A stretch of 64,000 nt of DNA from an uncultured bacterium (GTDB taxonomy: Bacteria > Patescibacteriota > Minisyncoccia > Phycocordibacterales > PALSA-1337): assembly GCA_903839725.1 (NCBI GenBank), contig CAIMDG010000002.1, forward strand, positions 135,739 through 199,738, in the 5' to 3' direction. The translations under genes and the position numbers were made by a program. Positions 8,094 through 63,936 of this stretch are shown here, piece by piece. Positions within the stretch are counted from its first letter, which is position 1, and each line of letters begins with the position of its first letter. The notes below the pieces were generated by a model, which was not told the origin of the DNA, made no database searches, and saw only the letters and a program-made list of their open reading frames with translations.

Positions 8094-8813
8094 TTACAGC
8101 TTTGAATTTACTTCTTTTGCCATCTGTTCAACTATCTGACTCGCACCAGCAACTGCAGTCGGTGTACTCAAATTTACCACAACATCATAATTTTTATTTG
8201 ATGATGCAAAAATCACTTCAGCAATTGCTTTGTCAGGACCTACTGATAGTGACCCTGTACATGTTGATGATTTGATACCGATATCCCCTGCCGTACACTC
8301 TATTCCACTTATTCCCGATGAACTATTATTTCTCACACTCATTAACATGTTATAACCAGTGATTGAATCCTGATACACAGCAGGGTCGAGAGGATATACA
8401 GTTACGAGACCTTCATAGATAATTGCTACACCTTTTGACACAGTCATCGAATCATATGCACAAATAAGATGACGACTATTCGATGCCGCACTTTTTACTA
8501 GCTTAAATTTCAGTGTTGGAAAAGCTTGATCTATTTGACTCGTTGGGAATATTTGACCACATGTTAACGTCCCAAAATTATTTGACGAATTTGATGAGCC
8601 AGGATCAACAACAATCGGCCCTCCACAAGGAGTGCTCGTAGCGTCCGTACTTGTTGCCGTAGTAACACAAGTACTTGTTGCAGTAATAGAATCCGCAACT
8701 GACGAGGTCGCAAATGGTGAACTTGATTTATATATTACAAAAATACCACCTACGACAACTACTGCTGCAATTATTACCCACACGAGTACTGATCCTTTTT
8801 GATAGTTTTTCAT
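8094..8813 (-). CDS. Membrane-anchored Ser/Thr-rich protein of unknown function
   Basis: N-terminal TM helix VLVWVIIAAVVVVGGIFVIY followed by a T/S-rich linker and no recognisable domain. Confidence 0.5.
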   Translation of the reverse strand: MKNYQKGSVLVWVIIAAVVVVGGIFVIYKSSSPFATSSVADSITATSTCVTTATSTDATSTPCGGPIVVDPGSSNSSNNFGTLTCGQIFPTSQIDQAFPTLKFKLVKSAASNSRHLICAYDSMTVSKGVAIIYEGLVTVYPLDPAVYQDSITGYNMLMSVRNNSSSGISGIECTAGDIGIKSSTCTGSLSVGPDKAIAEVIFASSNKNYDVVVNLSTPTAVAGASQIVEQMAKEVNSKL

Positions 8814-8898: not shown

Positions 8899-8957
8899 AA
8901 AGAAAAGACCCTCACCGTAGAAAGCATGAGGGTTGCTTTTCTACGAGAGGGTCGGTT
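8899..8957 (-). terminator. Intrinsic terminator (minus strand) after the 8968..9783 gene; copy 1 of an about 60 bp repeat
   Basis: On the minus strand: gaccctctcgtagaaaagcaaccctcatgctttctacggtgagggtc then ttttcttt. About 85% identical to 9923-9981. Confidence 0.7.
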
Positions 8958-8967
8958 TGAAATTCGA

Positions 8968-9783: not shown

Positions 9784-9922
9784 TCAATGAACATTCACTT
9801 GGTGCTCTGTAGAGCGATTGAGGTGTAGTGACTCACCTATGATGTGAAACTAATGTAGTAATAACACTTACTACAATCATCTGTCAATATCAGTAAAATC
9901 ACACTAAAATCTCAATTCAATA

Positions 9923-9981
9923 AAAGAAAAGACCCTCACCATAGAGAGCATGAGGATTGCTTTTCTACGAGAGGGTCGGCT
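9923..9981 (-). terminator. Intrinsic terminator copy 2 (paralogous repeat), upstream of the 8968..9783 gene
   Basis: aaagaaaagaccctcaccatagagagcatgaggattgcttttctacgagagggtcggcttt. On the minus strand the hairpin is followed by ttttcttttatt. Confidence 0.65.
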
Positions 9982-10212
9982 TTAAGGTAATTTGTTGGTA
10001 ACGATTGCCGTCAATTGGGAGTGAACATACCCATTTGTGGAACATCCGCTTTGCAACCATTGAACAGTGGCGGCCGGATGAGTTTCAAGGTAACTGTTAA
10101 CTTGATTTTGCAATTTTGTTAACGCGTCATCACTGTCGATCAATTCCGAAAACAATTTAAACATATTTTTCAATTCTGGGTTTAGGTTGATACTGCCTAA
10201 AATCCTCAACAA
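9982..10212 (-). CDS. Small hypothetical ORF (76 aa), uncertain
   Basis: ORF only. Its start overlaps a 13 bp-stem nested palindrome at 10188-10238. Confidence 0.2.
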   Translation of the reverse strand: MLRILGSINLNPELKNMFKLFSELIDSDDALTKLQNQVNSYLETHPAATVQWLQSGCSTNGYVHSQLTAIVTNKLP

Positions 10213-10767: not shown

Positions 10768-10791
10768 GAAATATATTGTAACATTATTCTG

Positions 10792-11180
10792 TGGAGATGC
10801 TGGGAATCGAACCCAGGTGCAATTGATATTCATCGAACGACTCTACAGCGATATCAGACCTTGTTCCACGAAGTGGATTTAATGATTGTGATCCAGAAAG
10901 TCTGAAAAACACACAATCACGATCTCATTCCGCCCGAAGACGGATTCAAGAACTGAAGTGAGAAGCTTCAATCCCCTACATCCAGATTATTACGCCAACA
11001 TCATAGTCAGGATCCCCATGAAGTAACGGCTGTCGTTAAACGAGAGCGAATGCGAAGTCCTTTTGACCAAAATATGGTGAAACGGTTGATTTTGCATTTA
11101 GAATTTCCATCAGATTTACGAGTTAATGGTGCTCGCGCTGCACGAACGAGAATGGTCAACTGTCGAAGCCGATCATCCCC
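10792..11180 (-). ncRNA. ssrA: tmRNA (SsrA), about 389 nt, CCA not encoded
   Basis: The 5' end GGGGATGATCGGCTTCGACAG matches the tmRNA consensus GGGGnUGAUnCnGGnUUCGAC. The 3' end is GCACCTGGGTTCGATTCCCAGCATCTCCA, with a T-arm and a 7 bp acceptor pairing with the 5' GGGGATG (one G-U). The gene lies directly beside smpB. A candidate tag reading frame starts at a GCA about 86 nt from the 5' end: GCAAAATCAACCGTTTCACCATATTTTGGTCAAAAGGACTTCGCATTCGCTCTCGTTTAA gives AKSTVSPYFGQKDFAFALV*. Confidence 0.8.
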
Positions 11181-11313: not shown

Positions 11314-11760
11314 TCAACGATCACTAAACTCCCTTCTCACCGTCCTATCAGTTTCGCGCTTTTTGATACTTTCGCGCTTGTCATGCTGCTTTTTACCACG
11401 CACAACAGCGACAGAGACCTTGAGAAGATTACCCTTATTATATATTGAAATTGGCACTATTGTCAACCCCTTACCTCCTTCAATATCAGCCAAACGCGCA
11501 ATTTCCTTCTTGCCGAGAATGAGTCGGCGATTCCTGCGAGGTTCATAGTCTTTCGGAGTATTATTCTCCTGATACGGAGGTACAAATGTATTTACCACAT
11601 AGGCCTCTCCCCCACGAACGATGACATATGAACCATCGAGTGAGCCCTGACCTTTCTTAATCGACTTTACTTCAAGACCAATCAGCTCAATACCAGCCTC
11701 GATTTTCTCGAGGATTTCGTAGTTGAAATGCGCCTTTTTGTAGTCGATCAATGTGGGCAT
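11314..11760 (-). CDS. smpB: SsrA-binding protein SmpB
   Basis: MPTLIDYKKAHFNYEILEKIEAGIELIGLEVKSIKKG... is the canonical SmpB N-terminus. The gene is adjacent to the tmRNA. Confidence 0.9.
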   Translation of the reverse strand: MPTLIDYKKAHFNYEILEKIEAGIELIGLEVKSIKKGQGSLDGSYVIVRGGEAYVVNTFVPPYQENNTPKDYEPRRNRRLILGKKEIARLADIEGGKGLTIVPISIYNKGNLLKVSVAVVRGKKQHDKRESIKKRETDRTVRREFSDR

Positions 11761-15893: not shown

Positions 15894-16017
15894 ATCACCC
15901 CAGACAACACGGCCCCCTGAAGACTCCGTTACGAACGAGTATAAATGCCTAAAGAATCACATAATGAAACGATATCCCGCTGGGAAGTCTTCAGGGGGCC
16001 GTGTTGTCTGGGGTGAT
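15894..16017. repeat. Long-palindrome element (full-core type): 32-33 bp perfect inverted-repeat arms around a conserved core
   Basis: Arms atcaccccagacaacacggccccctgaagact (15894-15925) and agtcttcagggggccgtgttgtctggggtgat. The core ccgttacgaacgagtataaatgcctaaagaatcacataatgaaacgatatcccgctggga is related to the cores at 56423, 58796, 61435 and 63810. Confidence 0.85.
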
Positions 16018-16038: not shown

Positions 16039-16162
16039 GGCAGAGAGGAATATGGGCGTGGTGGGAGACTGCCCGGAGGGATATCGTCTTTTCATTTTGT
16101 ACTTTAGGCACAACTCCTCGTACGTAACGACGTCTCCAACCACGCCCATATTCCTCTCCGCC
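16039..16162. repeat. Long-palindrome element (full-core type, opposite orientation), 31 bp arms with 2 mismatches
   Basis: Arms ggcagagaggaatatgggcgtggtgggagac and gtctccaaccacgcccatattcctctccgcc. The core cccggagggatatcgtcttttcattttgtactttaggcacaactcctcgtacgtaacg is the reverse complement of the family core. Confidence 0.8.
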
Positions 16163-19760: not shown

Positions 19761-20360
19761 CTACGCGACAACAGGTGTCTTGGGGCGGCAAGCCAGAGGT
19801 TCATAGGAAAACCGATTCGCTTGGCACATATCAAACCTGAGGGCAATTTCATGCATCTCAACAAATGAGTTCTGATGTTTGGAGCCACCGGAACCATGAA
19901 TTTGCCGAGCTTCTTCAAGCGCACATTCCACATACACCCACAAGACGCTGGTGTAAGGAAAGTTCGCAAGATCTTTGATCTTGAAGAGTGTCCGGAAACG
20001 ATGCCAATCATGTTCGAAGCATAAAACTTCCGGCGAAGGTCTTTTCCTAAAATGGAAGGTGAACAATGTAATCACGAACCACACGAAGGATGCACAGTCC
20101 ATAATTGCGACACCCCATAAAGAATAGAGCACCATCGGGCGATGATCAGAAAATATGTGACTGATGTGATACACAACCAAACTGACAAAAAATGCACAGA
20201 AAAGCATATTGACCGCTGCAAGCATTCGACTTCGGAGAAGTTCTTCTTGCTCCGCAATATGTGCACCGGAGACATAGTCTACGGTCACTTTATTGTGACT
20301 GGCCCATATTTTGAAAATATCTTCCAAACCCTTGATAGGTGTCATGTCTGAACGTTTCAT
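19761..20360 (-). CDS. Hypothetical membrane protein inserted between secY and adk
   Basis: 199 aa with 3-4 hydrophobic helices and no recognised domain. A perfect palindrome GGGATATCATATCCC lies 31 nt upstream. Confidence 0.5.
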   Translation of the reverse strand: MKRSDMTPIKGLEDIFKIWASHNKVTVDYVSGAHIAEQEELLRSRMLAAVNMLFCAFFVSLVVYHISHIFSDHRPMVLYSLWGVAIMDCASFVWFVITLFTFHFRKRPSPEVLCFEHDWHRFRTLFKIKDLANFPYTSVLWVYVECALEEARQIHGSGGSKHQNSFVEMHEIALRFDMCQANRFSYEPLACRPKTPVVA

Positions 20361-20390
20361 AGGTTTTCAAGGTTCAATCATTATATTCAA

Positions 20391-20405
20391 GGGATATCAT
20401 ATCCC
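20391..20405. promoter_or_regulatory. Perfect palindrome GGGATAT-C-ATATCCC overlapping the promoter region of the 19761..20360 gene; candidate operator
   Basis: Exact 15 bp palindrome. On the minus strand a TATAAT hexamer follows 8 nt downstream. The half-site GGGATATC recurs in the cores of the palindrome-element family. Confidence 0.5.
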
Positions 20406-20518
20406 ATTTCACCAAGCGAAAGCTCAGTAAAATCCATAGAACACAACGACTGAATCTACCCAGAAAACTACACCTTACCTACTCGCAAGTCAAAGGATAA
20501 AAATCCTCTTCCAGCAAA

Positions 20519-21933: not shown

Positions 21934-22590
21934 TTACTTAGCTTTTACTTCCTTCTTTGCAGGAGCAACTTTCTCTTTTTTCTCTACCTTTTCAACTTTT
22001 TCAGCTTTTGGAGCTGCAGGCTTTGCTCCTGCCTGCGCAGACAGGGCCTTAGGTTTCTTTTCTGCCTTAGCAGGAGCTTCTGCTGGCATAACTTTTGCTT
22101 GAGCAACACGTGCTGCAGTTACTTTGTTTGAGGCTGTTTGAGAAGCAGTAATCTCTACTGTTCCGCCAGCTTTCTTGATCTTTTCAAGAGCTGATTCTGA
22201 GATAGCAAGACCTGAAATTTTGAAAGCTTTTGTAACTTCACCTTCTCCGAGAATCTTCATCCAAGGAACACGTCCTGAAGATGTTGAGACAATACCCTTT
22301 TCAAGAAGGATTGCTGGAGTGATAGCGTCACCTGCTGAGAATACTGCTTCGAGGACATCGACATTCACAACAACTGGCTTCTCAGCGAATGCCTTGTTTT
22401 GATTGACGCCACGACCGCGCAACTTTGGAAGTTTCTTGATGATATCGCGCCATTCTGGACGACGCTTGTTTCCGGCACGAGCAGACTGACCCTTGCCTCC
22501 ACGACCTGCAGTCTTACCGCGCTTACCACCACGAGCGACGATAACGCGCTTCATGTTAGGTGTCTTACGTTGTAGTTGATTGGTTTGCAT
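21934..22590 (-). CDS. rplO: 50S ribosomal protein L15 with a roughly 70 aa Lys/Ala-rich C-terminal extension
   Basis: L15 core (GRGGKGQSARAG...) plus the tail PAEAPAKAEKKPKALSAQAGAKPAAPKAEKVEKVEKKEKVAPAKKEVKAK. Confidence 0.9.
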   Translation of the reverse strand: MQTNQLQRKTPNMKRVIVARGGKRGKTAGRGGKGQSARAGNKRRPEWRDIIKKLPKLRGRGVNQNKAFAEKPVVVNVDVLEAVFSAGDAITPAILLEKGIVSTSSGRVPWMKILGEGEVTKAFKISGLAISESALEKIKKAGGTVEITASQTASNKVTAARVAQAKVMPAEAPAKAEKKPKALSAQAGAKPAAPKAEKVEKVEKKEKVAPAKKEVKAK

Positions 22591-22640
22591 GGAATTAAAT
22601 TAGTTAAAAGTTTACAGTGAAAAATGAAAAGTTATTTTAC
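22591..22640 (-). promoter_or_regulatory. Conserved intercistronic leader motif copy A (between rpsE stop and rplO start)
   Basis: ggaattaaattagttaaaagtttacagtgaaaaatgaaaagttattttac is 34/35 identical over its core to 27363-27410 and related to 54009-54046. Confidence 0.7.
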
Positions 22641-23345
22641 ACTTCTCTCTTTGTGAACATTGAGAGTGGCACGATTGACCTTACTCAATTTCTGGAGAGC
22701 GACGATAGCGGCACGAGCGTTATTCAAGCGATTCTTACTTCCCGAAAGAAACTTCGCACAGACATCCTTGATACCTGCAAGTTCGATAACAGCACGAGCT
22801 GATGATCCTGCAACAACTCCACGTCCACGAGCTGGAAAAATCATGATGCGAGCACTTGCATACTTTGCTTCAACAGCATGAGGAATAGTCATTTGAGCTG
22901 ACAATGGAACCTTGATGAGGTTTTTCTTTGCAGCACGAGTAGCTTTGTCGACTGCAGAAGCAGTATCGATACTCTTGCCCAAACCAACACCAACGCGACC
23001 CTTGCGATCACCTGCAACAACTGCGACACTGAAGTTCATACGGCGACCACCAGTTGTCACACGAGTAACACGGCGGATATCGATAATCTTTGAATCAAAT
23101 TCTGGCTTAACACGTTCACGATTGCCTCCCTCGCGACTTCCACCACGACTGCCGCCGCGAGCACCAGTAGGACCACTGTGACTACCACGACGAGCTGGAT
23201 CACCACGCATCTTGCGACCTGGAGTAATCTTTGAGTCAGATGTAGGCATTCCTGCTGCAGCTGTAGGATCAATGATTGTTTCAGTAACAACTCCTGTTGC
23301 TGGAATAGTTGTCTCTGTATGTATTTTTGTATCTTTTGCTGTCAT
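22632..23345 (-). CDS. rpsE: 30S ribosomal protein S5 with a roughly 75 aa Arg/Gly-rich N-terminal extension
   Basis: GRRMNFSVAVVAGDRKGRVGVGLGKS S5 core, preceded by ...RGDPARRGSHSGPTGARGGSRGGSREGGNRE. Confidence 0.9.
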   Translation of the reverse strand: MTAKDTKIHTETTIPATGVVTETIIDPTAAAGMPTSDSKITPGRKMRGDPARRGSHSGPTGARGGSRGGSREGGNRERVKPEFDSKIIDIRRVTRVTTGGRRMNFSVAVVAGDRKGRVGVGLGKSIDTASAVDKATRAAKKNLIKVPLSAQMTIPHAVEAKYASARIMIFPARGRGVVAGSSARAVIELAGIKDVCAKFLSGSKNRLNNARAAIVALQKLSKVNRATLNVHKERSVK

Positions 23346-24889: not shown

Positions 24890-25037
24890 AATGATTATTT
24901 GTCCAAAGAAATGAGGATTGGTTAGCTATGCCCTTTCGGGTTGTGCTTCCAATCGCTTGTTCTAAGATAACCTTGTTTTATTAAGGTATTCAAGATACTA
25001 GCAGATACATTGAATAGAGTCAACTAATTTTTATTCA

Positions 25038-25160
25038 GGAACAAGAGAGGTGGTGTGTACTCACTTTCTGCAGAATTTTGGAAACGCTTGTGACGAACTA
25101 ATATGCCACAGTGTCTCTAAAATTCTGCAGAAAGTGAGTACACACCACCTCTCTTGTTCC
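25038..25160. repeat. Long-palindrome element (short-core type): 42 bp perfect arms and a 39 nt loop, between rplE and rpsN
   Basis: Arms ggaacaagagaggtggtgtgtactcactttctgcagaatttt and the exact reverse complement at 25119-25160. The loop ggaaacgcttgtgacgaactaatatgccacagtgtctct is related to the 5' part of the family core and to the 54262 copy (shared ...agtgtctct end). Confidence 0.85.
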
Positions 25161-25771: not shown

Positions 25772-25816
25772 ATGTTTGTTTTATTCGTTGCATTCGAATT
25801 ATTCGTAGATTCGTAG

Positions 25817-26936: not shown

Positions 26937-27362
26937 TTATACGCGACTTACGATTTTGGTTTTAACAGGAAGCTTTGTACCAGCCTTGCGGAGAGCTTCT
27001 GCGGCAACTGCATTGTCGACACCGTCGATCTCGAACATGATACGACCTGGCTTGACCTCAGCAACGAAACCGATTGGTTCACCTTTACCCTTTCCCATTT
27101 TCACTTCGGCAGGCTTCTGTGTGAAAGGCATGTCTGGGAAAATACGGATCCAAACTTTACCAGATTTTGTAGCATAACGAGCCATAACCTTACGAGCTGC
27201 CTCGATTTGGTTTGACGTGATACGTCCGTACTTCATCGCCTTGAGGCCGTATGAGCCAAAAGCGAGAGTGACGCCACGAGTTTCGGTCTTAAGCGCCTCC
27301 TTGACTGGATGCTTACGCTTAACGAAATGCTTGCGATGCTTTACTTTCTTAGGGAATAACAT
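26937..27362 (-). CDS. rplP: 50S ribosomal protein L16
   Basis: [19 protein letters not shown]...[19 protein letters not shown] is L16. Confidence 0.93.
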
Positions 27363-27410
27363 GGTAGTAAGGTTAGTTTAAAGTTTACAGTGAAAAATGA
27401 AAAGTTATTT
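27363..27410 (-). promoter_or_regulatory. Conserved intercistronic leader motif copy B (between rpsC stop and rplP start)
   Basis: ggtagtaaggttagtttaaagtttacagtgaaaaatgaaaagttatttagc. The upstream gene's TAA stop lies inside the motif, as in copy A. Confidence 0.7.
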
Positions 27411-28079
27411 AGCGGCAACATCCTTCTTAAATATCTCGCCTTTATATATCCAGACCTTGATACCAATATCTCCGTAGGTCATATGAGCCTTCTCGCGAGC
27501 GAAGTCGATATCTGCACGCAATGTCTGAAGAGGAATACGTCCTTTCTTGAGCTCTTCACTGCGGGCGATCTCAGCTCCACCCAAACGACCACCCAAACGA
27601 ATACGGATACCGAGAACTTCCTTGTTTGCCATAACCTTTTCGATGGTCTGCTTCATAACACGACGGAATGGGAGACGCTTTTCGAGAGCTTCAGCAATCA
27701 TGAGGCCAGTGATAGCGGCGTTTGATTCTGGAGTGCGGATTTCTTCGATATCGAGCTTGAGTTCCTGACCCTTGAGTTCAACCTTATTATCACGGAGGAG
27801 TTTGAGGAGCTTTTCGCGGAGCTTAACAACACCGTCACCAGCCTTACCGATGAGCATACCTGGACGTGATGTCTTCACGATGACACGGAGAGCCTTTTGA
27901 TTGCGTTCAATGTCGAGACCACCGAGATAGAATGAGCGGAGTTCTTTGTGGAGGAATTCACGGATGATGAGGTCCCCTTTCAAAGCACTACGATATGCTT
28001 TGTCAGTACCAAACCAACGACTCTTCCAGTCGCGAATGATTCCAAGTCTATGAGAATATGGGTGTACGGTGTGTGACAT
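27405..28079 (-). CDS. rpsC: 30S ribosomal protein S3
   Basis: 224 aa. KH-domain GKAGDGVVKLREKL, then LKGQELKLDIEEIRTPESNAAITGLMIAEALE and GIKVWIYKGEIF in the C-terminal domain. Sits between rplV and rplP in S10-operon order. Confidence 0.93.
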   Translation of the reverse strand: MSHTVHPYSHRLGIIRDWKSRWFGTDKAYRSALKGDLIIREFLHKELRSFYLGGLDIERNQKALRVIVKTSRPGMLIGKAGDGVVKLREKLLKLLRDNKVELKGQELKLDIEEIRTPESNAAITGLMIAEALEKRLPFRRVMKQTIEKVMANKEVLGIRIRLGGRLGGAEIARSEELKKGRIPLQTLRADIDFAREKAHMTYGDIGIKVWIYKGEIFKKDVAAK

Positions 28080-28818: not shown

Positions 28819-28935
28819 AAAATATTATCGTAATGTTGAAAAGTAGAATAAAAGAAGCTCCGATGAGCTCGACAAGTATGCTAACAGAATGAGTATATGA
28901 AGTCAAGGATGTGGCTTGAATATAAGGCGAGAATG

Positions 28936-28975
28936 AAAAAGCCGCCCTCCATATTGCGAGGGCGGCGGTGATTTT
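28936..28975 (-). terminator. Intrinsic terminator after the LysA-like gene, immediately upstream of the rpsS leader
   Basis: gccgccctc catattgc gagggcggc, a 9 bp GC stem followed on the minus strand by ttttt. Confidence 0.7.
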
Positions 28976-28983
28976 ACGGGACG

Positions 28984-30300
28984 TTAGCCGAGGTGAATGA
29001 TGTGCTCATCTCCTTCGAGACCGAGATGGCGCGCATTCAAATCATCATACGTTTCCGCACGACAGATTCGGCGAACATTGCCGAGACCGTCGAGGAGTAA
29101 TTCCTGCGGACGACAACGGCCGTTGTAATTGAAACCCATGGCCGAGCCGTGCGCACCAGTATCGTGGGTGATAAAGAGATCCCCTTCACGAGGATCCGGC
29201 AGCATGCCCTTTTTGAGCACCAGATCACAGCCTTCGCAGATGGGGCCGGCACCAGAGACTTCAATAATTGGACGACTACCTTCGCCGATCAGAAAACCAT
29301 CTTGCTCCAACACGGTGCAGTGGTGATAGGCTTTGGAATACATACCAACACGCATGAGCGCGGGCATGGCAACTTGGAGACCGGCGAATTCGATATATTT
29401 GCGATATCGATTGATCACGCGGTTGACCAATACTCCATGGGGGCCAGTTACGAAACGGCCACTTTCCATGAAGAGAGACGGCACAAAACCGTTAAGTTCA
29501 AAAAATTGAACTGCTGATTCCTTGCACTCAGTGGCGAAGGCCTCGAGGTCGAATGGTGTATCACCGGGGCGATACGGAATACCCAAACCGCCACCAACAT
29601 TGACGAATTCGAGTTCGATACCGAGCTCGTCAAGCAAACGCTTCGCAATATCGAGAAGCAACTTATAGGTCGCGACCAAATTCGTATAATCGAGGTTATT
29701 CGAACACACCATCGTGTGTAAACCGAAACGTGTTGCGCCGGCCTGATAGGCTTGGCGATACGCTTCGACGATCAGTTCGATCGGAACACCATACTTGGAA
29801 TCAGGGTCAGCCATGCTGCGCATATCCTTCGAACCGTCAGCCGAGGAAACGCCCGGATGTAACCGAAAAGAAATGAGATTCGGAAATGGGCCGAGAGCTT
29901 GAACTTTTTTGATGTATTCAATTCCGTCGAGGTTGAGGATGCAGCCACCACAAGAACGCAGCGCTTCGATCAACTCCTCTTCCGAGGTGTCGTTCGAAGT
30001 GAACATGATATCCTCCGGTCGGGCTCCGGCGTAGCGAGCCAAACGGAGTTCAGGAATGGAGCTGCAGTCGAAGCCGCAGTCTTCAGATTTGATGATGTCC
30101 ATGATTGCCGGCTTGGGAAGCGCCTTGACCGCGTAGAACTCCTTGAAGTCCATCTGGCGGAAGCTGAATGCATTCTTCAAGGTGCGGAGTGTATCCCGGA
30201 TTCCTGGCTCATAGTAAATATGGTAGGGCGGAGCGAATTTTTTGTTGATCGCAGCGAGCTTTGGAAAAAGCGCCTGCATGAATTCTTGACTCATTGGCAT
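28984..30300 (-). CDS. PLP-dependent fold-III decarboxylase (Orn/DAP/Arg decarboxylase family; LysA-like, carboxynorspermidine decarboxylase not excluded)
   Basis: YAVKA (PLP lysine), VNVGGGLGIPY, ESGRFV, GPICEGCD and HDTGAHGSAMGFNYNGR motifs. 438 aa. Markedly GC-richer than the flanking r-protein genes. Confidence 0.6.
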   Translation of the reverse strand: MPMSQEFMQALFPKLAAINKKFAPPYHIYYEPGIRDTLRTLKNAFSFRQMDFKEFYAVKALPKPAIMDIIKSEDCGFDCSSIPELRLARYAGARPEDIMFTSNDTSEEELIEALRSCGGCILNLDGIEYIKKVQALGPFPNLISFRLHPGVSSADGSKDMRSMADPDSKYGVPIELIVEAYRQAYQAGATRFGLHTMVCSNNLDYTNLVATYKLLLDIAKRLLDELGIELEFVNVGGGLGIPYRPGDTPFDLEAFATECKESAVQFFELNGFVPSLFMESGRFVTGPHGVLVNRVINRYRKYIEFAGLQVAMPALMRVGMYSKAYHHCTVLEQDGFLIGEGSRPIIEVSGAGPICEGCDLVLKKGMLPDPREGDLFITHDTGAHGSAMGFNYNGRCRPQELLLDGLGNVRRICRAETYDDLNARHLGLEGDEHIIHLG

Positions 30301-30520
30301 AATTTTTTGTATTCAATTGTTGTAGCGATACTACTGTTTTTTGACACATATCGCCGATACTGTGTCTGAACGAAGACTACTGATAATACTGAATACTGTC
30401 AAGAAACGCCCGAAATCTGGACCCGTACTATTCTTGACACAAACTCACTCAAAAGGTAGAAATACCCCAGGACTGCCGTATTGTTACGGTAGTAGAAAAC
30501 TCAAAACCACATACTGACAC

Positions 30521-31024
30521 ATGAATACCCCTAAAAATACATTGATACGCACAGCGACCCTCGAAGTCTTTGAAATGTTCGGCCCGTTATTCGAGGACCG
30601 TTTCATTACCCAAGTTGAAGGGCGTGTGGCGGCAGTCATCACCGTTCTCAACCCGCACCACACGCGTGAAAACAGCCACCAACCGATGGTGCTCGAAAGC
30701 ATCATCCTCGGTAATAAAGATGTTTCCAAATGGCAACACCCCTACAATGAATACGCTGAAGCGAAGGCCAAGGCTGCCTGGCGGTCTGCGCGATCAAATC
30801 ACCTCATATTCGCCGGCGCTCCGCATCTGATCGAATCTGACGATTTCAAATTCGCCGGTGGCGTCTATGATGACGGTATCGTGGTTGCCACGAGCGGCCT
30901 CAAATGCTGGGAAGATGATCTGTTTGTCTCCCAAGTCGTCGCCTCGGCCATCAAAGCACACGTAATCAAGACGGCAAATCCTGTGATCAATGAGCCGAAG
31001 AAGGCTGATTTGTTTTTCCGGTAA
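30521..31024 (+). CDS. Hypothetical protein (167 aa), GC-rich
   Basis: ORF with coding-like composition and no recognised family. Confidence 0.45.
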   Translation: MNTPKNTLIRTATLEVFEMFGPLFEDRFITQVEGRVAAVITVLNPHHTRENSHQPMVLESIILGNKDVSKWQHPYNEYAEAKAKAAWRSARSNHLIFAGAPHLIESDDFKFAGGVYDDGIVVATSGLKCWEDDLFVSQVVASAIKAHVIKTANPVINEPKKADLFFR

Positions 31025-31151
31025 TCGTCATGATTACCATTGCACCGTTCCCTCTCGTAGGGAACGGTTTTTTATTTCATCATTCTTGGACAAAAAATAT
31101 ATATGAGAAACGCCGCCCAGTTGAAGCCGGGCGGCGTGCGATAGTGAACTA

Positions 31152-32357
31152 TTATTCGTAGGAAACTTTGGCGGCGGCGAAACCTGCCTCAATTTCCTCG
31201 ATCTGGGCACCAACATCCGTGGCACAAATGGCATACCGAATCCACTTGTCGAACGGGATACCGCAGAGGCCGGTATTATCCGTCATGATGTTGTTAAACT
31301 CCTCACCATTGGCGATGTCCTGACCAAATGCCTTCGTTGGGGCATCGAACAGTAAGAAGAAGCCCGCTTCCGGTTTGACGGCGAGGCGCATGCCCCGACG
31401 TTTCAAAACTGACGCGACGAGATCGAGACGTTCGGCATACACCTGATGAACTTCCTCGATACGATCGCGGTGCTTTTCGAAGACATCGAGCACGCCTGCC
31501 GCCGCAAAAGCGACGAAGCCACTGTCGAGATTACCCTTGATCTGGGTAACGTCCGCGATGAATTCGGGTGAACCCGCCATTGCCCCGACGCGCCAGCCAG
31601 TAAAGTTACCAGCCTTCGAGGCAGAGAATGCTTCGATCCAATTCAGATCGCGGAATTCAAGAGCCACATCAGTCAACGTTACCGACTCGGGGCTGTTACT
31701 CAAGATGTGATATGCCCCGTCGTTAACAAGACGGACACCACGATCAGAACAGAAACGACACAGATTCGTGAGCCAATCACGCTTGGCAATGATGCCGGTC
31801 GGATTTTCCGGGAAGTTTAAGCAAATCATGTCGCCTTCGGTGATACCGATAAGGCTCTCCGGAGAAAACAGAAATCCCTTCTTGGGATCCAGCGGTAGCT
31901 CCACCTGTTGGATGCCCTTGATGGCACCGCAGACATATGCGGGCGTCGGATAACCAGGATTCGTCATGGTATAAACTCGCGACAATGAACCGGGACGTTC
32001 CCAGGTGCCGAGAGATTCCACCAACACCTGCAACATCGGTTTGATGCCCGGAATCGGTAGGTAGCTGATGACGTCCGCAGCATAATCCTTCAAATCACGC
32101 ACGACATGACACTGCACAAAACGACGCGCGAAGTCGGGGACACCCGGCGACCCGTTGTCCTGGTATTCATGCATCGCTTCACTGTCAGACATGACTGCGG
32201 CGGCGGCGGCCATGCGGGCCTCCAAAATGGCAGGTCCAGCTGGCTGGCCGACGGTGAGGTTGATGATTTTCTTGCCGGCAGCCATAGCTTCGGCGCGCTT
32301 GGACTTCGAACGTTGAAACACGTTCGGGGGAGCACTGGATAGGAGTCTTTCTCTCAT
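31152..32357 (-). CDS. Class I/II PLP aminotransferase (LL-diaminopimelate aminotransferase DapL-like; tentative)
   Basis: Aminotransferase fold with SASKAGNFTGWRVG (PLP-lysine motif of the SxSKxxGxxGxRxG type). About 400 aa. GC-rich. The start may be the internal MAAGKK (32285). Confidence 0.6.
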   Translation of the reverse strand: MRERLLSSAPPNVFQRSKSKRAEAMAAGKKIINLTVGQPAGPAILEARMAAAAAVMSDSEAMHEYQDNGSPGVPDFARRFVQCHVVRDLKDYAADVISYLPIPGIKPMLQVLVESLGTWERPGSLSRVYTMTNPGYPTPAYVCGAIKGIQQVELPLDPKKGFLFSPESLIGITEGDMICLNFPENPTGIIAKRDWLTNLCRFCSDRGVRLVNDGAYHILSNSPESVTLTDVALEFRDLNWIEAFSASKAGNFTGWRVGAMAGSPEFIADVTQIKGNLDSGFVAFAAAGVLDVFEKHRDRIEEVHQVYAERLDLVASVLKRRGMRLAVKPEAGFFLLFDAPTKAFGQDIANGEEFNNIMTDNTGLCGIPFDKWIRYAICATDVGAQIEEIEAGFAAAKVSYE

Positions 32358-32507
32358 GTTATGTTGTCTTTCAATAGCCTAGTTATATGTGATGAACATC
32401 GAGACGGCTACCTCTCGAGATCTTGTGTAAGACTACTTGAAATCATGATTTTGTCAACTGGATACACAAAAATGCCCTCCATTGAGGGCATTATATTTCA
32501 TATTAAC

Positions 32508-33017
32508 TTATTTTGGCTGTCTTTTCTTCTTATAGAAATTCTTGGACTCTCTCGTAATGGCAAGGATAGAAATCACTGCAATATATGAACCACTTACTTC
32601 GATAGGCATACGATATGTTGGATGTGTGATCACATTCGCCACGATAATATACAAAATAAGCACAGTCCACACGATCAAATACAATTCACCTGGATGAATC
32701 GATGTATGCATGTGGTGCCAACGACGAAATTCTTTTTCTGCACTATAGATAGCTAGGGCTGCGCCGTAAATTCCTGCGATGGCCAATAAAATCTCATTAT
32801 CAGCAAGAAAATTTTCATTATAAAAATCGTACACAATAGCTACGAAGAATATAAATGTCCAGAAATTGACCAGCATGCGCCATGCCCCGAATGTACCTAT
32901 TCTGCGAATTAATTTGAATATATTAAACATGTGCATGAAGTGAATATGCTTCTCTTTATTCATGAGGTGCAATAAATAGCACTGCAATATATTCGATAAC
33001 TCCTTTAACTTTTTCAA
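32508..33017 (-). CDS. Hypothetical membrane protein (low GC)
   Basis: 169 aa with 3-4 hydrophobic helices. Confidence 0.5.
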   Translation of the reverse strand: MKKLKELSNILQCYLLHLMNKEKHIHFMHMFNIFKLIRRIGTFGAWRMLVNFWTFIFFVAIVYDFYNENFLADNEILLAIAGIYGAALAIYSAEKEFRRWHHMHTSIHPGELYLIVWTVLILYIIVANVITHPTYRMPIEVSGSYIAVISILAITRESKNFYKKKRQPK

Positions 33018-33043
33018 CTAGTTTTTCAAACATATAATGGGAT

Positions 33044-33075
33044 TAGTATAACAAAAAACAGGAAGTGGTGCTCCC
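33044..33075. terminator. Hairpin terminator between the rplB end and the membrane-protein gene start
   Basis: aaaaaacaggaag tggtgc tccctgttttttg (stem with 1 mismatch, A/T-run flanks). Confidence 0.55.
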
Positions 33076-33100
33076 TGTTTTTTGTGTAAAAGTAAATAAA

Positions 33101-52677: not shown

Positions 52678-52697
52678 ATAATCTTAAAAATTAAATA

Positions 52698-53094
52698 TTA
52701 AATCTCAAATTTTAGTAATCTTACTATTTTTCTTCATTGTAATTATACTCGCTCCCAATATATTTGATATCTCAACAGTCTCCTTAAGAATCGTTTCTGC
52801 TATGTCTTTTTGAAGCTTTCCTGTATCACGAGCCAATCCTATCCATAATTTAGACTCATTTGCAGACTTTAAACTATACGTGTAGAAATTGATGTAATCT
52901 TTTCTAGAACTTGCACCTTTAGCTTCAACAACATTCGCAACAACCGATGTTCCACTTCTTATCAACTGTCTTGCAATCACCTGACCTGAAATATCTTTAG
53001 AGAACTTATCGACGCATCTCACAATCTCAATGGCATACTTGTATAATCTTGCATCAATTTCCTTCTTCGTCATTTTTGAGATTTGAGATTTAAT
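52698..53094 (-). mobile_element. Putative mobile cassette: four-helix-bundle gene bounded by 14 bp perfect terminal inverted repeats
   Basis: attaaatctcaaat at 52698-52711 and its exact reverse complement atttgagatttaat at 53081-53094. The left repeat includes the gene's stop codon and the right repeat lies 8 nt upstream of its ATG. Extra partial tandem copies of tttgagattt occur at 53075-53091. The cassette interrupts the conserved rpsG-fusA junction. Confidence 0.55.
52705..53073 (-). CDS. Four-helix-bundle protein (TIGR02436-like; 23S rRNA intervening-sequence protein family)
   Basis: MTKKEIDARLYKYAIEIVRCVDKFSKDISGQVIARQLIRSGTSVVANVVEAKGASSRKDYINFYTYSLKSANESKLWI matches the four-helix-bundle family pattern (SxxANIAEG-like SGTSVVANVVEA, FxxFLxIAxGSxxE-like). 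Confidence 0.75.
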   Translation of the reverse strand: MTKKEIDARLYKYAIEIVRCVDKFSKDISGQVIARQLIRSGTSVVANVVEAKGASSRKDYINFYTYSLKSANESKLWIGLARDTGKLQKDIAETILKETVEISNILGASIITMKKNSKITKI

Positions 53095-53109
53095 CTTTCA
53101 GATTGAAAC

Positions 53110-53580
53110 TTACCAAGCAAAGTGAGCAAAAGCCTTGTTTGCTTCCGCCATCTTGTGAACGTTTTCACGCTTCTTAACTGCTTCTCCTTCATTCTTTGAT
53201 GCTGCGATGATTTCGTCAGCGAGTTTGAGGTGTATAGGCTTTCCCTTCTTTCCACGAGCCGCTTCAACGATCCACTTCATAGAAAGTGAATTCTTGCGTT
53301 CTGGGCGAACTTCACGAGGAACTTGGTAGTTTGCTCCACCGACACGGCGTGAACGAACTTCCATAGCTGGTGCAGTATTCTTGAGAGCCGCCTCGAAAAC
53401 TTCGAGAGGATTCTCATTTTTTGTCTGTTCTTTAATCGCAATCATACAATCAGCAACAATCTGGCGAGCAATGTTCTTCTTGCCTGACTCCATAATATAG
53501 TTAGTAAGCTTGGCGAGTTTCAATGACTGATATGTCACATCTGGCTTGAGCTCACGCTTGAGGTTTAATTTTCTTCGCAT
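53110..53580 (-). CDS. rpsG: 30S ribosomal protein S7
   Basis: 156 aa with the pattern RRVGGANYQVPREVRPERKNSLSMKWIVEAARGKKGKPIHLKLADEIIAASKNEG. Confidence 0.93.
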   Translation of the reverse strand: MRRKLNLKRELKPDVTYQSLKLAKLTNYIMESGKKNIARQIVADCMIAIKEQTKNENPLEVFEAALKNTAPAMEVRSRRVGGANYQVPREVRPERKNSLSMKWIVEAARGKKGKPIHLKLADEIIAASKNEGEAVKKRENVHKMAEANKAFAHFAW

Positions 53581-53591
53581 AGTAGTAGGGG

Positions 53592-54008
53592 TTATTTAGC
53601 TGCTTTTGGCTTCTTGTTACCATATTGACTGCGACCTTTTCTGCGCTTATCTACGCCAGCTGCATCGAGCACACCGCGAACAACTGAGTAACGGAGACCA
53701 ACGTCTTTGACGCGACCGCCACGAAGGAGGACCACTGAGTGTTCCTGGAGGTTGTGACCTTCACCTGGAATATATGCAGTAACTTCAAGACCATTTGTAA
53801 GACGAACACGAGCAATCTTGCGGATAGCTGAGTTAGGCTTCTTTGGAGTCTTTGTTGTAACTTTCACGCACACGCCGCGCTTGAATGGAGCCGGGAAGAA
53901 AACTGGTCGGTTCTTGACCGAGTTGAAGGTGCGGGTGAGCGCAATAGACTTCGACTTGCGGGTGAAGCGAGCACGATTCTTCTTGATTAACTGGTTGATT
54001 GTAGGCAT
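53592..54008 (-). CDS. rpsL: 30S ribosomal protein S12
   Basis: [10 protein letters not shown]... [18 protein letters not shown] ... [15 protein letters not shown] is the canonical S12. Confidence 0.95.
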
Positions 54009-54046
54009 GAATAAAATTAGTTTACAGTAAAAAATGAAAAGTGATT
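54009..54046 (-). promoter_or_regulatory. Conserved leader motif copy C (5' leader of rpsL)
   Basis: aataaaattagtttacagtaaaaaatgaaaagtgatta shares the core TTAGTTTACAGT(G/A)AAAAATGAAAAGT with copies A and B. Confidence 0.65.
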
Positions 54047-54261
54047 AGTTGGACGCACAGCAGCGCGCATACAACTTTGCACTTTACACTTCTAACTTTT
54101 AACTGTTATGTGGCAGTCCTGAATTATTCACCGCTTTGGGTTTGAGATATACCCTGACGATTACTCATTCTTGCCGTAATAATGTACTGGTCCAAAGTTT
54201 CCTTTAGATAGTGGAGATACCATATCATATAGATAGAGGATGTACAAGATATGAGAGTACG

Positions 54262-54375
54262 ACAGGAGGAGGGGCATTACTCATTTTCCGCACAAGTTTA
54301 GAGACACTTACATTACACAGCGTACCGCAGTGTTTACAAACTTGTGCGGAAAATGAGTAATGTCCCTCCTCCTGT
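54262..54375. repeat. Long-palindrome element (short-core type): 38 bp arms (1 mismatch) and a 38 nt loop, upstream of the rpsL leader
   Basis: Arms acaggaggaggggcattactcattttccgcacaagttt and aaacttgtgcggaaaatgagtaatgtccctcctcctgt. The loop gagacacttacattacacagcgtaccgcagtgtttac is related, as its reverse complement, to the 25038 copy's loop. Confidence 0.85.
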
Positions 54376-54401
54376 TGTGCGTATTGATTTAAATCAAGCC
54401 T

Positions 54402-56422: not shown

Positions 56423-56556
56423 GTGAAGACCGGCACACAACACTAGTCCAATGAAACATCCGTTATGTTCTAATGTAAGTGCCTGAAGTACACTATTGAA
56501 AAAAGATATCCCGCTGGGAATTGTTTCATCGGACTAGTGTGATATGCCGGTCTTAC
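56423..56556. repeat. Long-palindrome element (full-core type) between divergent genes (metallo-beta-lactamase-like protein and sodA); 35 bp arms with 5 mismatches
   Basis: Arms gtgaagaccggcacacaacactagtccaatgaaaca and tgtttcatcggactagtgtgatatgccggtcttac. Core aacatccgttatgttctaatgtaagtgcctgaagtacactattgaaaaaagatatcccgctgggaat. Confidence 0.85.
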
Positions 56557-58795: not shown

Positions 58796-58930
58796 CCCAA
58801 GCAGCCGCACACATAGTATCCTGCCAAAACATCCGTAACGTTCTAATATAAGGGCCTAAAGTACAATATTAAAAGACGATATCCCGCTGGGAATTGTTTC
58901 GTCAGGATACTATGTGTGCGGCTGCTTGGG
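58796..58930. repeat. Long-palindrome element (full-core type); 28 bp perfect arms
   Basis: Arms cccaagcagccgcacacatagtatcctg and caggatactatgtgtgcggctgcttggg. Core ccaaaacatccgtaacgttctaatataagggcctaaagtacaatattaaaagacgatatcccgctgggaattgtttcgt. Confidence 0.9.
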
Positions 58931-61434: not shown

Positions 61435-61561
61435 AAAGAAGTTCCCACAACAAGCCTGACGAAACAATTCCCAGCGGGATATCGTCTCATTACTTAATAC
61501 TTCAGGCACTAATAAGAGGACGTCACAGATGTTTCGTCAGGCTTGTTGTGGGAACTTCTTG
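61435..61561. repeat. Long-palindrome element (full-core type, reverse orientation) between divergent recJ and the DnaA-domain-IV-like gene; 32 bp perfect arms
   Basis: Arms aagaagttcccacaacaagcctgacgaaaca and tgtttcgtcaggcttgttgtgggaacttctt. Core attcccagcgggatatcgtctcattacttaatacttcaggcactaataagaggacgtcacaga. Confidence 0.9.
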
Positions 61562-63809: not shown

Positions 63810-63936
63810 AGGTAACCTACATATCACAGCCTGACGAAACATCCGTAACGTTCTAATATAAGTGCCTAAAGTACAATATTAAAAGACGATATCCCGCTGG
63901 GAATTGTTTCGTCAGGCTGTGATATGTAGGTTACCT
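63810..63936. repeat. Long-palindrome element (full-core type) 24 nt upstream of the pgk start; 32 bp perfect arms
   Basis: Arms aggtaacctacatatcacagcctgacgaaaca and tgtttcgtcaggctgtgatatgtaggttacct. Core tccgtaacgttctaatataagtgcctaaagtacaatattaaaagacgatatcccgctgggaat. Confidence 0.9.

Follow-up and report, generated by a model that had tools for sequence, protein, structure and literature searches.

In a stretch of bacterial DNA of 64,000 nt (called here the window, at its full length), three ribosomal protein (r-protein) genes are preceded by nearly the same AU-rich sequence, and the question raised by this locus is what this motif is and whether it takes part in the translation of the genes that follow it. 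We are highly confident that it is a young dispersed repeat and not a conserved regulator. The reading preferred here, to which a probability of about 0.5 is given, combines a lineage-restricted REP-like repeat with a spacer that would loosen translational coupling and offer the ribosome a landing site, the putative translational role being held with much less confidence than the repeat itself.

The 23-mer GTTTACAGTGAAAAATGAAAAGT (plus strand) is found exactly at 22610-22632 and 27383-27405 and with one mismatch at 54020-54042, and no match to it appeared in 100 dinucleotide-preserving shuffles (0 expected vs 3 observed). These counts of mismatches (0, 0, and 1) confirm the near-identity of the sequences before rplO, rplP, and rpsL, which had been claimed in an earlier note on this DNA. 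A repeat-family search of the 64-kb window returned a single family of 38 nt, with members at 22600-22637, 27373-27410 (97%), and 54010-54047 (71%). Sub-motif searches and an nhmmer profile detected no fourth copy of the motif in the 64-kb window, either full or partial, and the only other relative found there is a degenerate inverted copy at 54073-54104, located by nhmmer on the opposite strand. Identical repeat sequences were recovered in the independent metagenome assemblies L001, L002, and L042, so the repeats are not an assembly artefact. The source samples are groundwater (BUCK21 and GROS21 series); an identical L16 or S12 is found on 17-47 contigs, and contigs of up to 378 kb have the identical S12 and L15.

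Copy 1 (22591-22637, minus strand) comprises the 41-nt spacer between S5 and L15 (22591-22631) together with the last Lys codon and the UAA stop of S5. As mRNA it reads AAAUAA-CUUUUCAUUUUUCACUGUAAACUUUUAACUAAUUUAAUUCC-AUG, with one G per 41 nt. Copy 2 (27363-27410, minus strand) has the same composition, that is, the 42-nt S3-L16 spacer (27363-27404) with the last Lys codon and the UAA stop of S3, and is identical to copy 1 at 37 of 38 positions. Copy 3 (54009-54047, minus strand) forms the final 39 nt of the rpsL 5′ leader and carries its mismatch within the 23-nt core. Each of the three spacers, 39-42 nt in length, holds a single G. The general form in the mRNA is (AAA-UAA)-CUUUUCAUUUUUCACUGUAAACUUU(U/A)AACUAA..., followed by the AUG of uL15, uL16, or uS12. 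Neither copy 1 (z -1.65) nor copy 2 (z -0.20) shows more structure than its shuffles.

The genes downstream of the three copies are rplO (uL15, 218 aa, with an extended C-terminal tail; 21934-22590), rplP (uL16, 141 aa; 26937-27362), and rpsL (uS12, 138 aa; 53592-54008). The genes concerned are all placed on the minus strand, and the copies are in sense orientation at the starts of r-protein genes, as had been described. Pfam labels and translations support the three gene names and identify the upstream genes of copies 1 and 2 as uS5 (22632-23345) and uS3 (27405-28079), whose UAA stops do lie within the repeat (AAA-UAA-CUUUUC), in accordance with the earlier description. Two of its details need correction. 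The motif had been said to end 1-3 nt before the ATG, but the intervals given were whole spacers abutting the ATG, and the core ends 19 nt (rplO), 20 nt (rplP), and 11 nt (rpsL) away. The shared core that had been quoted, TTAGTTTACAGT, is contiguous in the rpsL copy only, the other two having 7 additional nt at that place. A signal acting at a fixed distance is unlikely, because the core is 19-20 nt from the AUG in two copies and 11 nt in the third.

The nearest L16, S12, and L15 proteins are labelled Candidatus Taylorbacteria, Parcubacteria, or Patescibacteria, and judging from these source names the host is a member of Candidatus Taylorbacteria, within the Parcubacteria of the Candidate Phyla Radiation (CPR). 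The uL30 gene is absent between rpsE (uS5) and rplO (uL15), and several r-proteins have extensions. Both the lack of uL30 and r-protein extensions have been reported for the CPR, and the anti-Shine-Dalgarno (anti-SD) sequence is missing from about half of Parcubacteria (PMC9297842). In the window, an SD-like tetramer (GGAG, GAGG, or AGGA at -20 to -4) precedes 3 of 55 genes, and G falls to 2-13% at positions -20 to -1. At position -6 the start context favors A (67%), at -5 C, at -4 U (60%), and at -1 a pyrimidine (91%), with no preference for A at -3 (38%). Start codons are often preceded by ACUACC or UACC, as in ACUACC-AUG or UACC-AUG (e.g., 26035/26036, 26428/26429, and 53580/53581). The absence of an SD sequence from the three sites, pointed out before, is thus true (one G per spacer) but not distinctive; with so few genes carrying an SD-like tetramer, it is a property of the genome.

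The neighborhoods of L16 from eight relatives and those of S12 and L15 from several were compared. The related loci that were fetched by protein are all r-protein neighborhoods, and for this reason the association of the motif with r-protein operons is partly a matter of ascertainment. The nucleotide identity of S3 and L16 fits the tree (((window, L020), L046), L024). On this tree, the window and L024 have the motif at the S3-L16 junction, and L020 and L046 do not.

In detail, the 42-nt motif of the S3-L16 spacer corresponds to TTCTATAATCTACTACC in the sister species L020 (L16 98% identical) and to TTAATTTACTACC in L046; against these empty sites of L020 and L046, the window shows a simple insertion or deletion of 25-29 nt. 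The spacer of L024/L025 (L16 94% identical) is CTTTTCACTTTTAACTGCAAACTTTTAACTAAACTACTACC, a diverged motif identical at 35 of 41 positions. The spacers of L003, L004, and L006 measure 6-18 nt and are without the motif, and that of L005 is an unrelated 90-nt hairpin (9911-10000, z -7.7). The spacer of L048 was considered as an orthologue of the motif, being equal in length (41 nt) and U-rich, but was rejected for want of significant sequence similarity. The motif is missing at S3-L16 in six relatives, including the sister species, which have either junctions of 6-18 nt or unrelated sequence.

At the S5-L15 junction, the 41-nt motif of the window stands against ATAAAATTCC in L020. In L046 a spacer of 25 nt corresponds to the 3′ two-thirds of the motif, from which three small deletions set it apart; the alignment score was reached by 3 of 5000 shuffles. 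In L048 the same junction is occupied by an unrelated 71-nt hairpin (20343-20413, z -8.3).

The motif had been presented as conserved. On the contrary, the sister species is without it at all three sites and five further relatives are without it at S3-L16. Junctions kept without the motif, a finding which the earlier note had counted against its own proposal, prevail among the relatives, the exceptions being the diverged copy of L024 and the shortened remnant of L046. From these comparisons, the element is dispensable and was repeatedly lost or shortened, and the repeat family is restricted to a narrow lineage of Taylorbacteria. Any benefit that it confers should be small, since the sister species and others manage without it.

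The copy of L024 bears on the question of selection. Between the window and L024, the motif is identical at 35 of 41 positions compared with 95 of 165 at the four-fold sites of the flanking genes (Fisher p = 5e-4); the non-coding region upstream of S19 shows an identity of 0.68. The better conservation of the motif than of the four-fold sites argues that it is not purely neutral. Recent recombination was rejected as the source of this similarity, as the sliding identity profile has no local peak at the junction. Both internal sites appear to be old, according to the L024 orthologue and the L046 remnant, yet copies 1 and 2 are identical at all but one of 38 positions, which suggests homogenization by gene conversion or re-copying.

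The third copy belongs to a hairpin of the rpsL leader (54026-54097, minus strand), whose 3′ arm (54026-54043) is the core of the copy and whose 5′ arm (54080-54097) is the degenerate inverted one. For the folded 130-nt segment 54006-54135, the MFE is -35.4 kcal/mol (z -3.24), a stability attained by 0 of 200 shuffles, and some 17-20 nt before the rpsL AUG are left single-stranded in the predicted fold. Lineages with 95-100% identical S12 share a near-identical upstream leader up to ...CAGGAYUGCCA, and then have a different hairpin each. For instance, the hairpins of the sister species and of sister lineages with 99-100% identical S12 are unrelated, those of L039-L041 belong to a family designated C (z -7.0), and that of L043 to a family designated B (z -4.1). 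The leader of L044 contains a homologue of the window hairpin over both arms with changes in both, and 0 of 2000 shuffles reach the score. From the comparison, the rpsL copy belongs, as its 3′ arm, to a leader hairpin passed down from an ancestor shared with the L044 lineage, and the intercistronic copies are arm-only singlets in junctions that measure 6-18 nt in most relatives.

A 17-codon upstream ORF runs through copy 3 (54020-54070, minus strand; starting at 54070 in the hairpin loop and ending 8 nt before the rpsL AUG). By inspection it is not conserved in the leaders of relatives, and with respect to the upstream stop the frame of the other copies differs; the motif was therefore not read as part of an upstream ORF. 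The upstream part of the rpsL leader (~54100-54250, minus strand), ...GUACAUUAUUACGGCAAGAAUGAGUAAUC...GGUGAAUAAUUCAGGAYUGCCA, is strongly conserved in the window, L039, L040, L043, and L044. The rpsL 5′ leader may be an r-protein leader of a kind not described before, with a hairpin cassette that can be replaced.

Other repeat families are found in the same slots. The L24-L5 spacer of the window holds a lineage-specific insertion of family B (25772-25816, minus strand; 45 nt with ACGAAT repeats), which is unrelated to the motif, and the corresponding junction of L020 and L046 consists of TACC only. In the hairpin of the L043 rpsL leader, the 5′ arm agrees with this spacer at 27 of 31 positions. 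In family C, the hairpin in the rpsL leader of L039 and that in the S5-L15 junction of L048 are homologues in both arms as well as in the loop (0 of 2000 shuffles). In locus L035, which is not ribosomal, the 22-mer of the motif makes up the 3′ arm of a hairpin that lies between an scpB gene and a FtsW/RodA-like membrane ORF; from the reading of its translations we take this locus to be CPR-like. In L037, two motif-like copies in antisense orientation flank a 23S_rRNA_IVP gene. Judging from families B and C, L035, and L037, short AU-rich hairpin elements and single arms of them occupy intergenic slots in these genomes and exchange them.

The motif was not recognized among known elements. No Rfam family matched at the gathering threshold or with E <= 1 at the three sites or the rpsL leader, and only tmRNA passes in the window. 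The scan of 185,579 reference species genomes, the host genome not being among them, for TTTTCATTTTTNACTGTAAAC gave 13 single matches in unrelated taxa, which are attributed to chance because no similarity extends beyond the pattern. Viral contigs that were scanned gave 0 matches. In the metagenome scan with a degenerate pattern, there were 13 single matches, of which only L035 and L037 look related. No RAYT, IS200/IS605-type transposase, or other mobilizing enzyme was present among the 20 window proteins scanned. A CRISPR array, with regular spacers of about 25-40 nt, does not fit the start-to-start spacing of 4773 and 26637 nt, a MITE was rejected for the lack of terminal inverted repeats and of a clear target-site duplication against the empty sites of L020 and L046, and a terminator was also ruled out.

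In the preferred reading of a REP-like repeat with a spacer effect, the consequence for translation follows from length and composition. The element extends the stop-to-start distance of S3-L16 and S5-L15 from 18 nt or less in most relatives to 41-42 nt. According to a review (PMC12548453), coupling becomes less efficient when the distance from stop to start increases by <20 nt, and also when structure follows directly on the stop codon; since coupling drops with this distance, L16 should be coupled less tightly to S3, and L15 to S5, by reason of the insertion. The stretch of about 30 nt, U-rich, G-poor, and unstructured, thus probably weakens termination-reinitiation coupling at both junctions. 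In this genome without SD pairing, the same stretch probably also serves as a single-stranded landing site (standby, S1-type), which would let the cistrons initiate independently. The tract in the rpsL leader would be partly masked by the complementary arm. In view of its conservation in L024, the motif may act as a translational enhancer or reinitiation spacer, although a dispensable one.

Three known systems are relevant to this translational part. A/U-rich tracts upstream of start codons would matter most where SD pairing is missing. The motif resembles A/U-rich enhancers and S1-dependent standby sites in being a single-stranded, U/A-rich, G-poor tract directly upstream of a start codon, and UAAACUUUA in copy 2 agrees at 8 of 9 positions with the epsilon sequence of phage T7 gene 10, UUAACUUUA. 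It differs from them in that its distance to the AUG is variable and most relatives do not have it, and any enhancer activity here is putative. SD-independent, Kozak-like initiation contexts in Bacteroidetes were reportedly described by Baez et al. in 2019. The window shares with Bacteroidetes starts the genome-wide lack of SD sequences, the A-rich and G-poor start regions, and the preferred A at -6 (67%). However, the Bacteroidetes context is a general start-site context, whereas the motif is a 30-nt repeat lying upstream of such a context. Similarly to r-protein autoregulatory leaders (S7 in the str operon, S8 at L5, and the Rfam r-leader families), the motif sits in r-protein leaders and junctions, and its rpsL copy in a structured leader; unlike them, it has no Rfam match, is not conserved across the clade, and at copies 1 and 2 shows neither a conserved structure nor mimicry of rRNA.

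The repeat part is best compared with the REP/REPIN elements of Proteobacteria, which occur in tens to hundreds of copies per genome together with a cognate RAYT, an IS200/IS605-type TnpA. Like these, the motif is a short extragenic repeat (20-40 nt), often within operons, found both as singlets (copies 1 and 2) and as inverted-doublet hairpins (the rpsL leader and L035), and it is uniform within the genome, diverged between species, and patchy among relatives. Its internal palindrome appears weak, the arms ACUUUUCA and UGUAAACU matching at 6 of 8 positions by manual count, and unlike REP elements it is AU-rich instead of GC-rich. Furthermore, 3 copies were seen here in 64 kb, all of them sense and beside start codons, with no RAYT in the 20 scanned proteins, and the host is a CPR bacterium. 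Our literature search found no description of REP-like elements in CPR bacteria.

The strongest competitor of the preferred reading is a repeat that is purely selfish or neutral, in which REP/REPIN- or MITE-like hairpins and their decayed half-copies are inserted or copied into permissive intergenic slots without any role in expression and the likeness of the copies is due to recent copying. The organization into singlets and inverted doublets is in favor of it, as are the presence/absence polymorphism among close relatives, the unrelated families in the same slots, the other dispersed repeats and long hairpins of the window, and the motif-like antisense sequences around the 23S_rRNA_IVP gene of L037. 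However, the orthologous copy of L024 exceeds the four-fold sites in identity (p = 5e-4), and all three window copies are sense and directly upstream of r-protein starts. The singlets are also without terminal inverted repeats or target-site duplication, the 20 scanned proteins include no RAYT or IS200-type transposase, and only 3 copies are counted per 64 kb. We see this explanation as a real but minority possibility.

A more speculative proposal, which we regard as a long shot, is that of interchangeable AU-rich cassettes on the r-protein mRNAs of SD-less Parcubacteria. Each cassette would be a single-stranded landing sequence with or without a masking arm, copied between the rpsL leader and the S3-L16, S5-L15, and L24-L5 junctions, and would set coupled versus independent translation for each cistron. 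The motif would be one of these cassettes, kept uniform through the same species-specific partner.

Distinctly improbable, in our judgment, is a specific operator, through which one trans-acting factor (an r-protein, an S1-like protein, or a small RNA) would co-regulate S12, L16, and L15, and where uniformity within the genome and divergence between species would reflect co-evolution with the factor. The identity of copies 1 and 2 (37/38), though both sites appear old, would suit such a factor, and the complementary anti-sequence of the rpsL leader could compete for the motif. Against this, copies 1 and 2 are unstructured, the AUG distance varies, no Rfam r-protein leader or other family matches, and no complementary sequence occurs elsewhere in the window. 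The motif is also lost at all three sites in the sister species with no common replacement motif. A common regulator of the three cistrons, as the earlier note had considered, is not supported.

Least of all is to be expected from an internal promoter for the transcription of L16, L15, and S12, or an antisense one: a weak sense reading, TTTTCA-17-TAAACT, fits copies 1 and 2 by eye, and an antisense TTTACA-16-TATTTT matches at 9 of 12 positions in copy 1 only, but the sense-strand sigma-70 scan gave no site at threshold at any copy, which bears out the poor promoter fit already noticed, promoter-like matches in the region are no more frequent than chance would give (19 vs 17.1 expected), copy 3 does not retain the antisense -10 element, the recognizable promoters of the genome are of other forms (TTGACT-17-TAGYAT, or TGnTATAAT by reading of upstream sequences), and the likely promoter lies in the conserved rpsL leader upstream of the hairpin.

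To our knowledge, how start codons are found without SD pairing is poorly understood in bacteria and essentially unstudied in the CPR. If the repeats alter coupling or ribosome recruitment, the window and its sister species offer natural insertion/deletion experiments, their junctions being identical in all other respects. Should the repeats be no more than selfish, they would be REP-like elements, undescribed as far as searched, that colonize core operons of a very small genome. Under either reading, the motif is not a widely conserved regulatory RNA; its kind, that is, short dispersed extragenic repeats, is known, and its host is unusual.

Several other elements of the window were recorded. 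A dispersed repeat family of 67-109 nt with the core GATATCCCGCTGGGAA is found in both orientations upstream of unrelated genes, with copies at 15925-15991, 16072-16128, 56436-56544, 58809-58917, 61470-61526, and 63819-63927. The genes downstream encode an uncharacterized 353-aa protein, ComEC, phosphoglycerate kinase, and RecJ. At 25038-25160, between the L5 terminator and the S14 promoter, and at 54255-54378, ahead of the promoter region of rpsL, there are two hairpins related to each other, each some 120 nt long with a near-perfect stem of 45 bp. The sister species retains the first of them with 87% identity and changes in both arms; a weak Rfam match to mir-266 at 25057-25141 was dismissed as part of this hairpin. 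Two hairpin-containing copies of 63 nt, 92% identical (8899-8961 and 9923-9985), lie downstream of two adjacent uncharacterized genes and are probably duplicated terminators.

With respect to the genes themselves, the S10-spc cluster is split (28819-33100, minus strand) by an insert between rplB and rpsS, which includes an aminotransferase, a DAP/ornithine decarboxylase-like gene, small ORFs, and an intrinsic terminator (28941-28966). The rpsS gene has its own TTGACT-17-TAGCAT promoter, and the S19 leader of L020 contains a lineage-specific hairpin insertion (8331-8569). The rpsN leader (24890-25000, minus strand), ...GAUUGGAAGCACAACCCGAAAGGGCAUAGCUAACCAAUCCUC..., is recognizably conserved to the distant Taylorbacteria relative L005, and also in L020, and may be a structured r-protein leader. 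A 23S_rRNA_IVP four-helix-bundle gene (52678-53112, minus strand) is placed between rpsG and fusA, with complementary flanks (duplex -19.5 kcal/mol); at this site the gene is missing in the sister species and present in L044. The tmRNA gene (Rfam 99 bits; 10789-11180, minus strand) adjoins smpB (11314-11760, minus strand).
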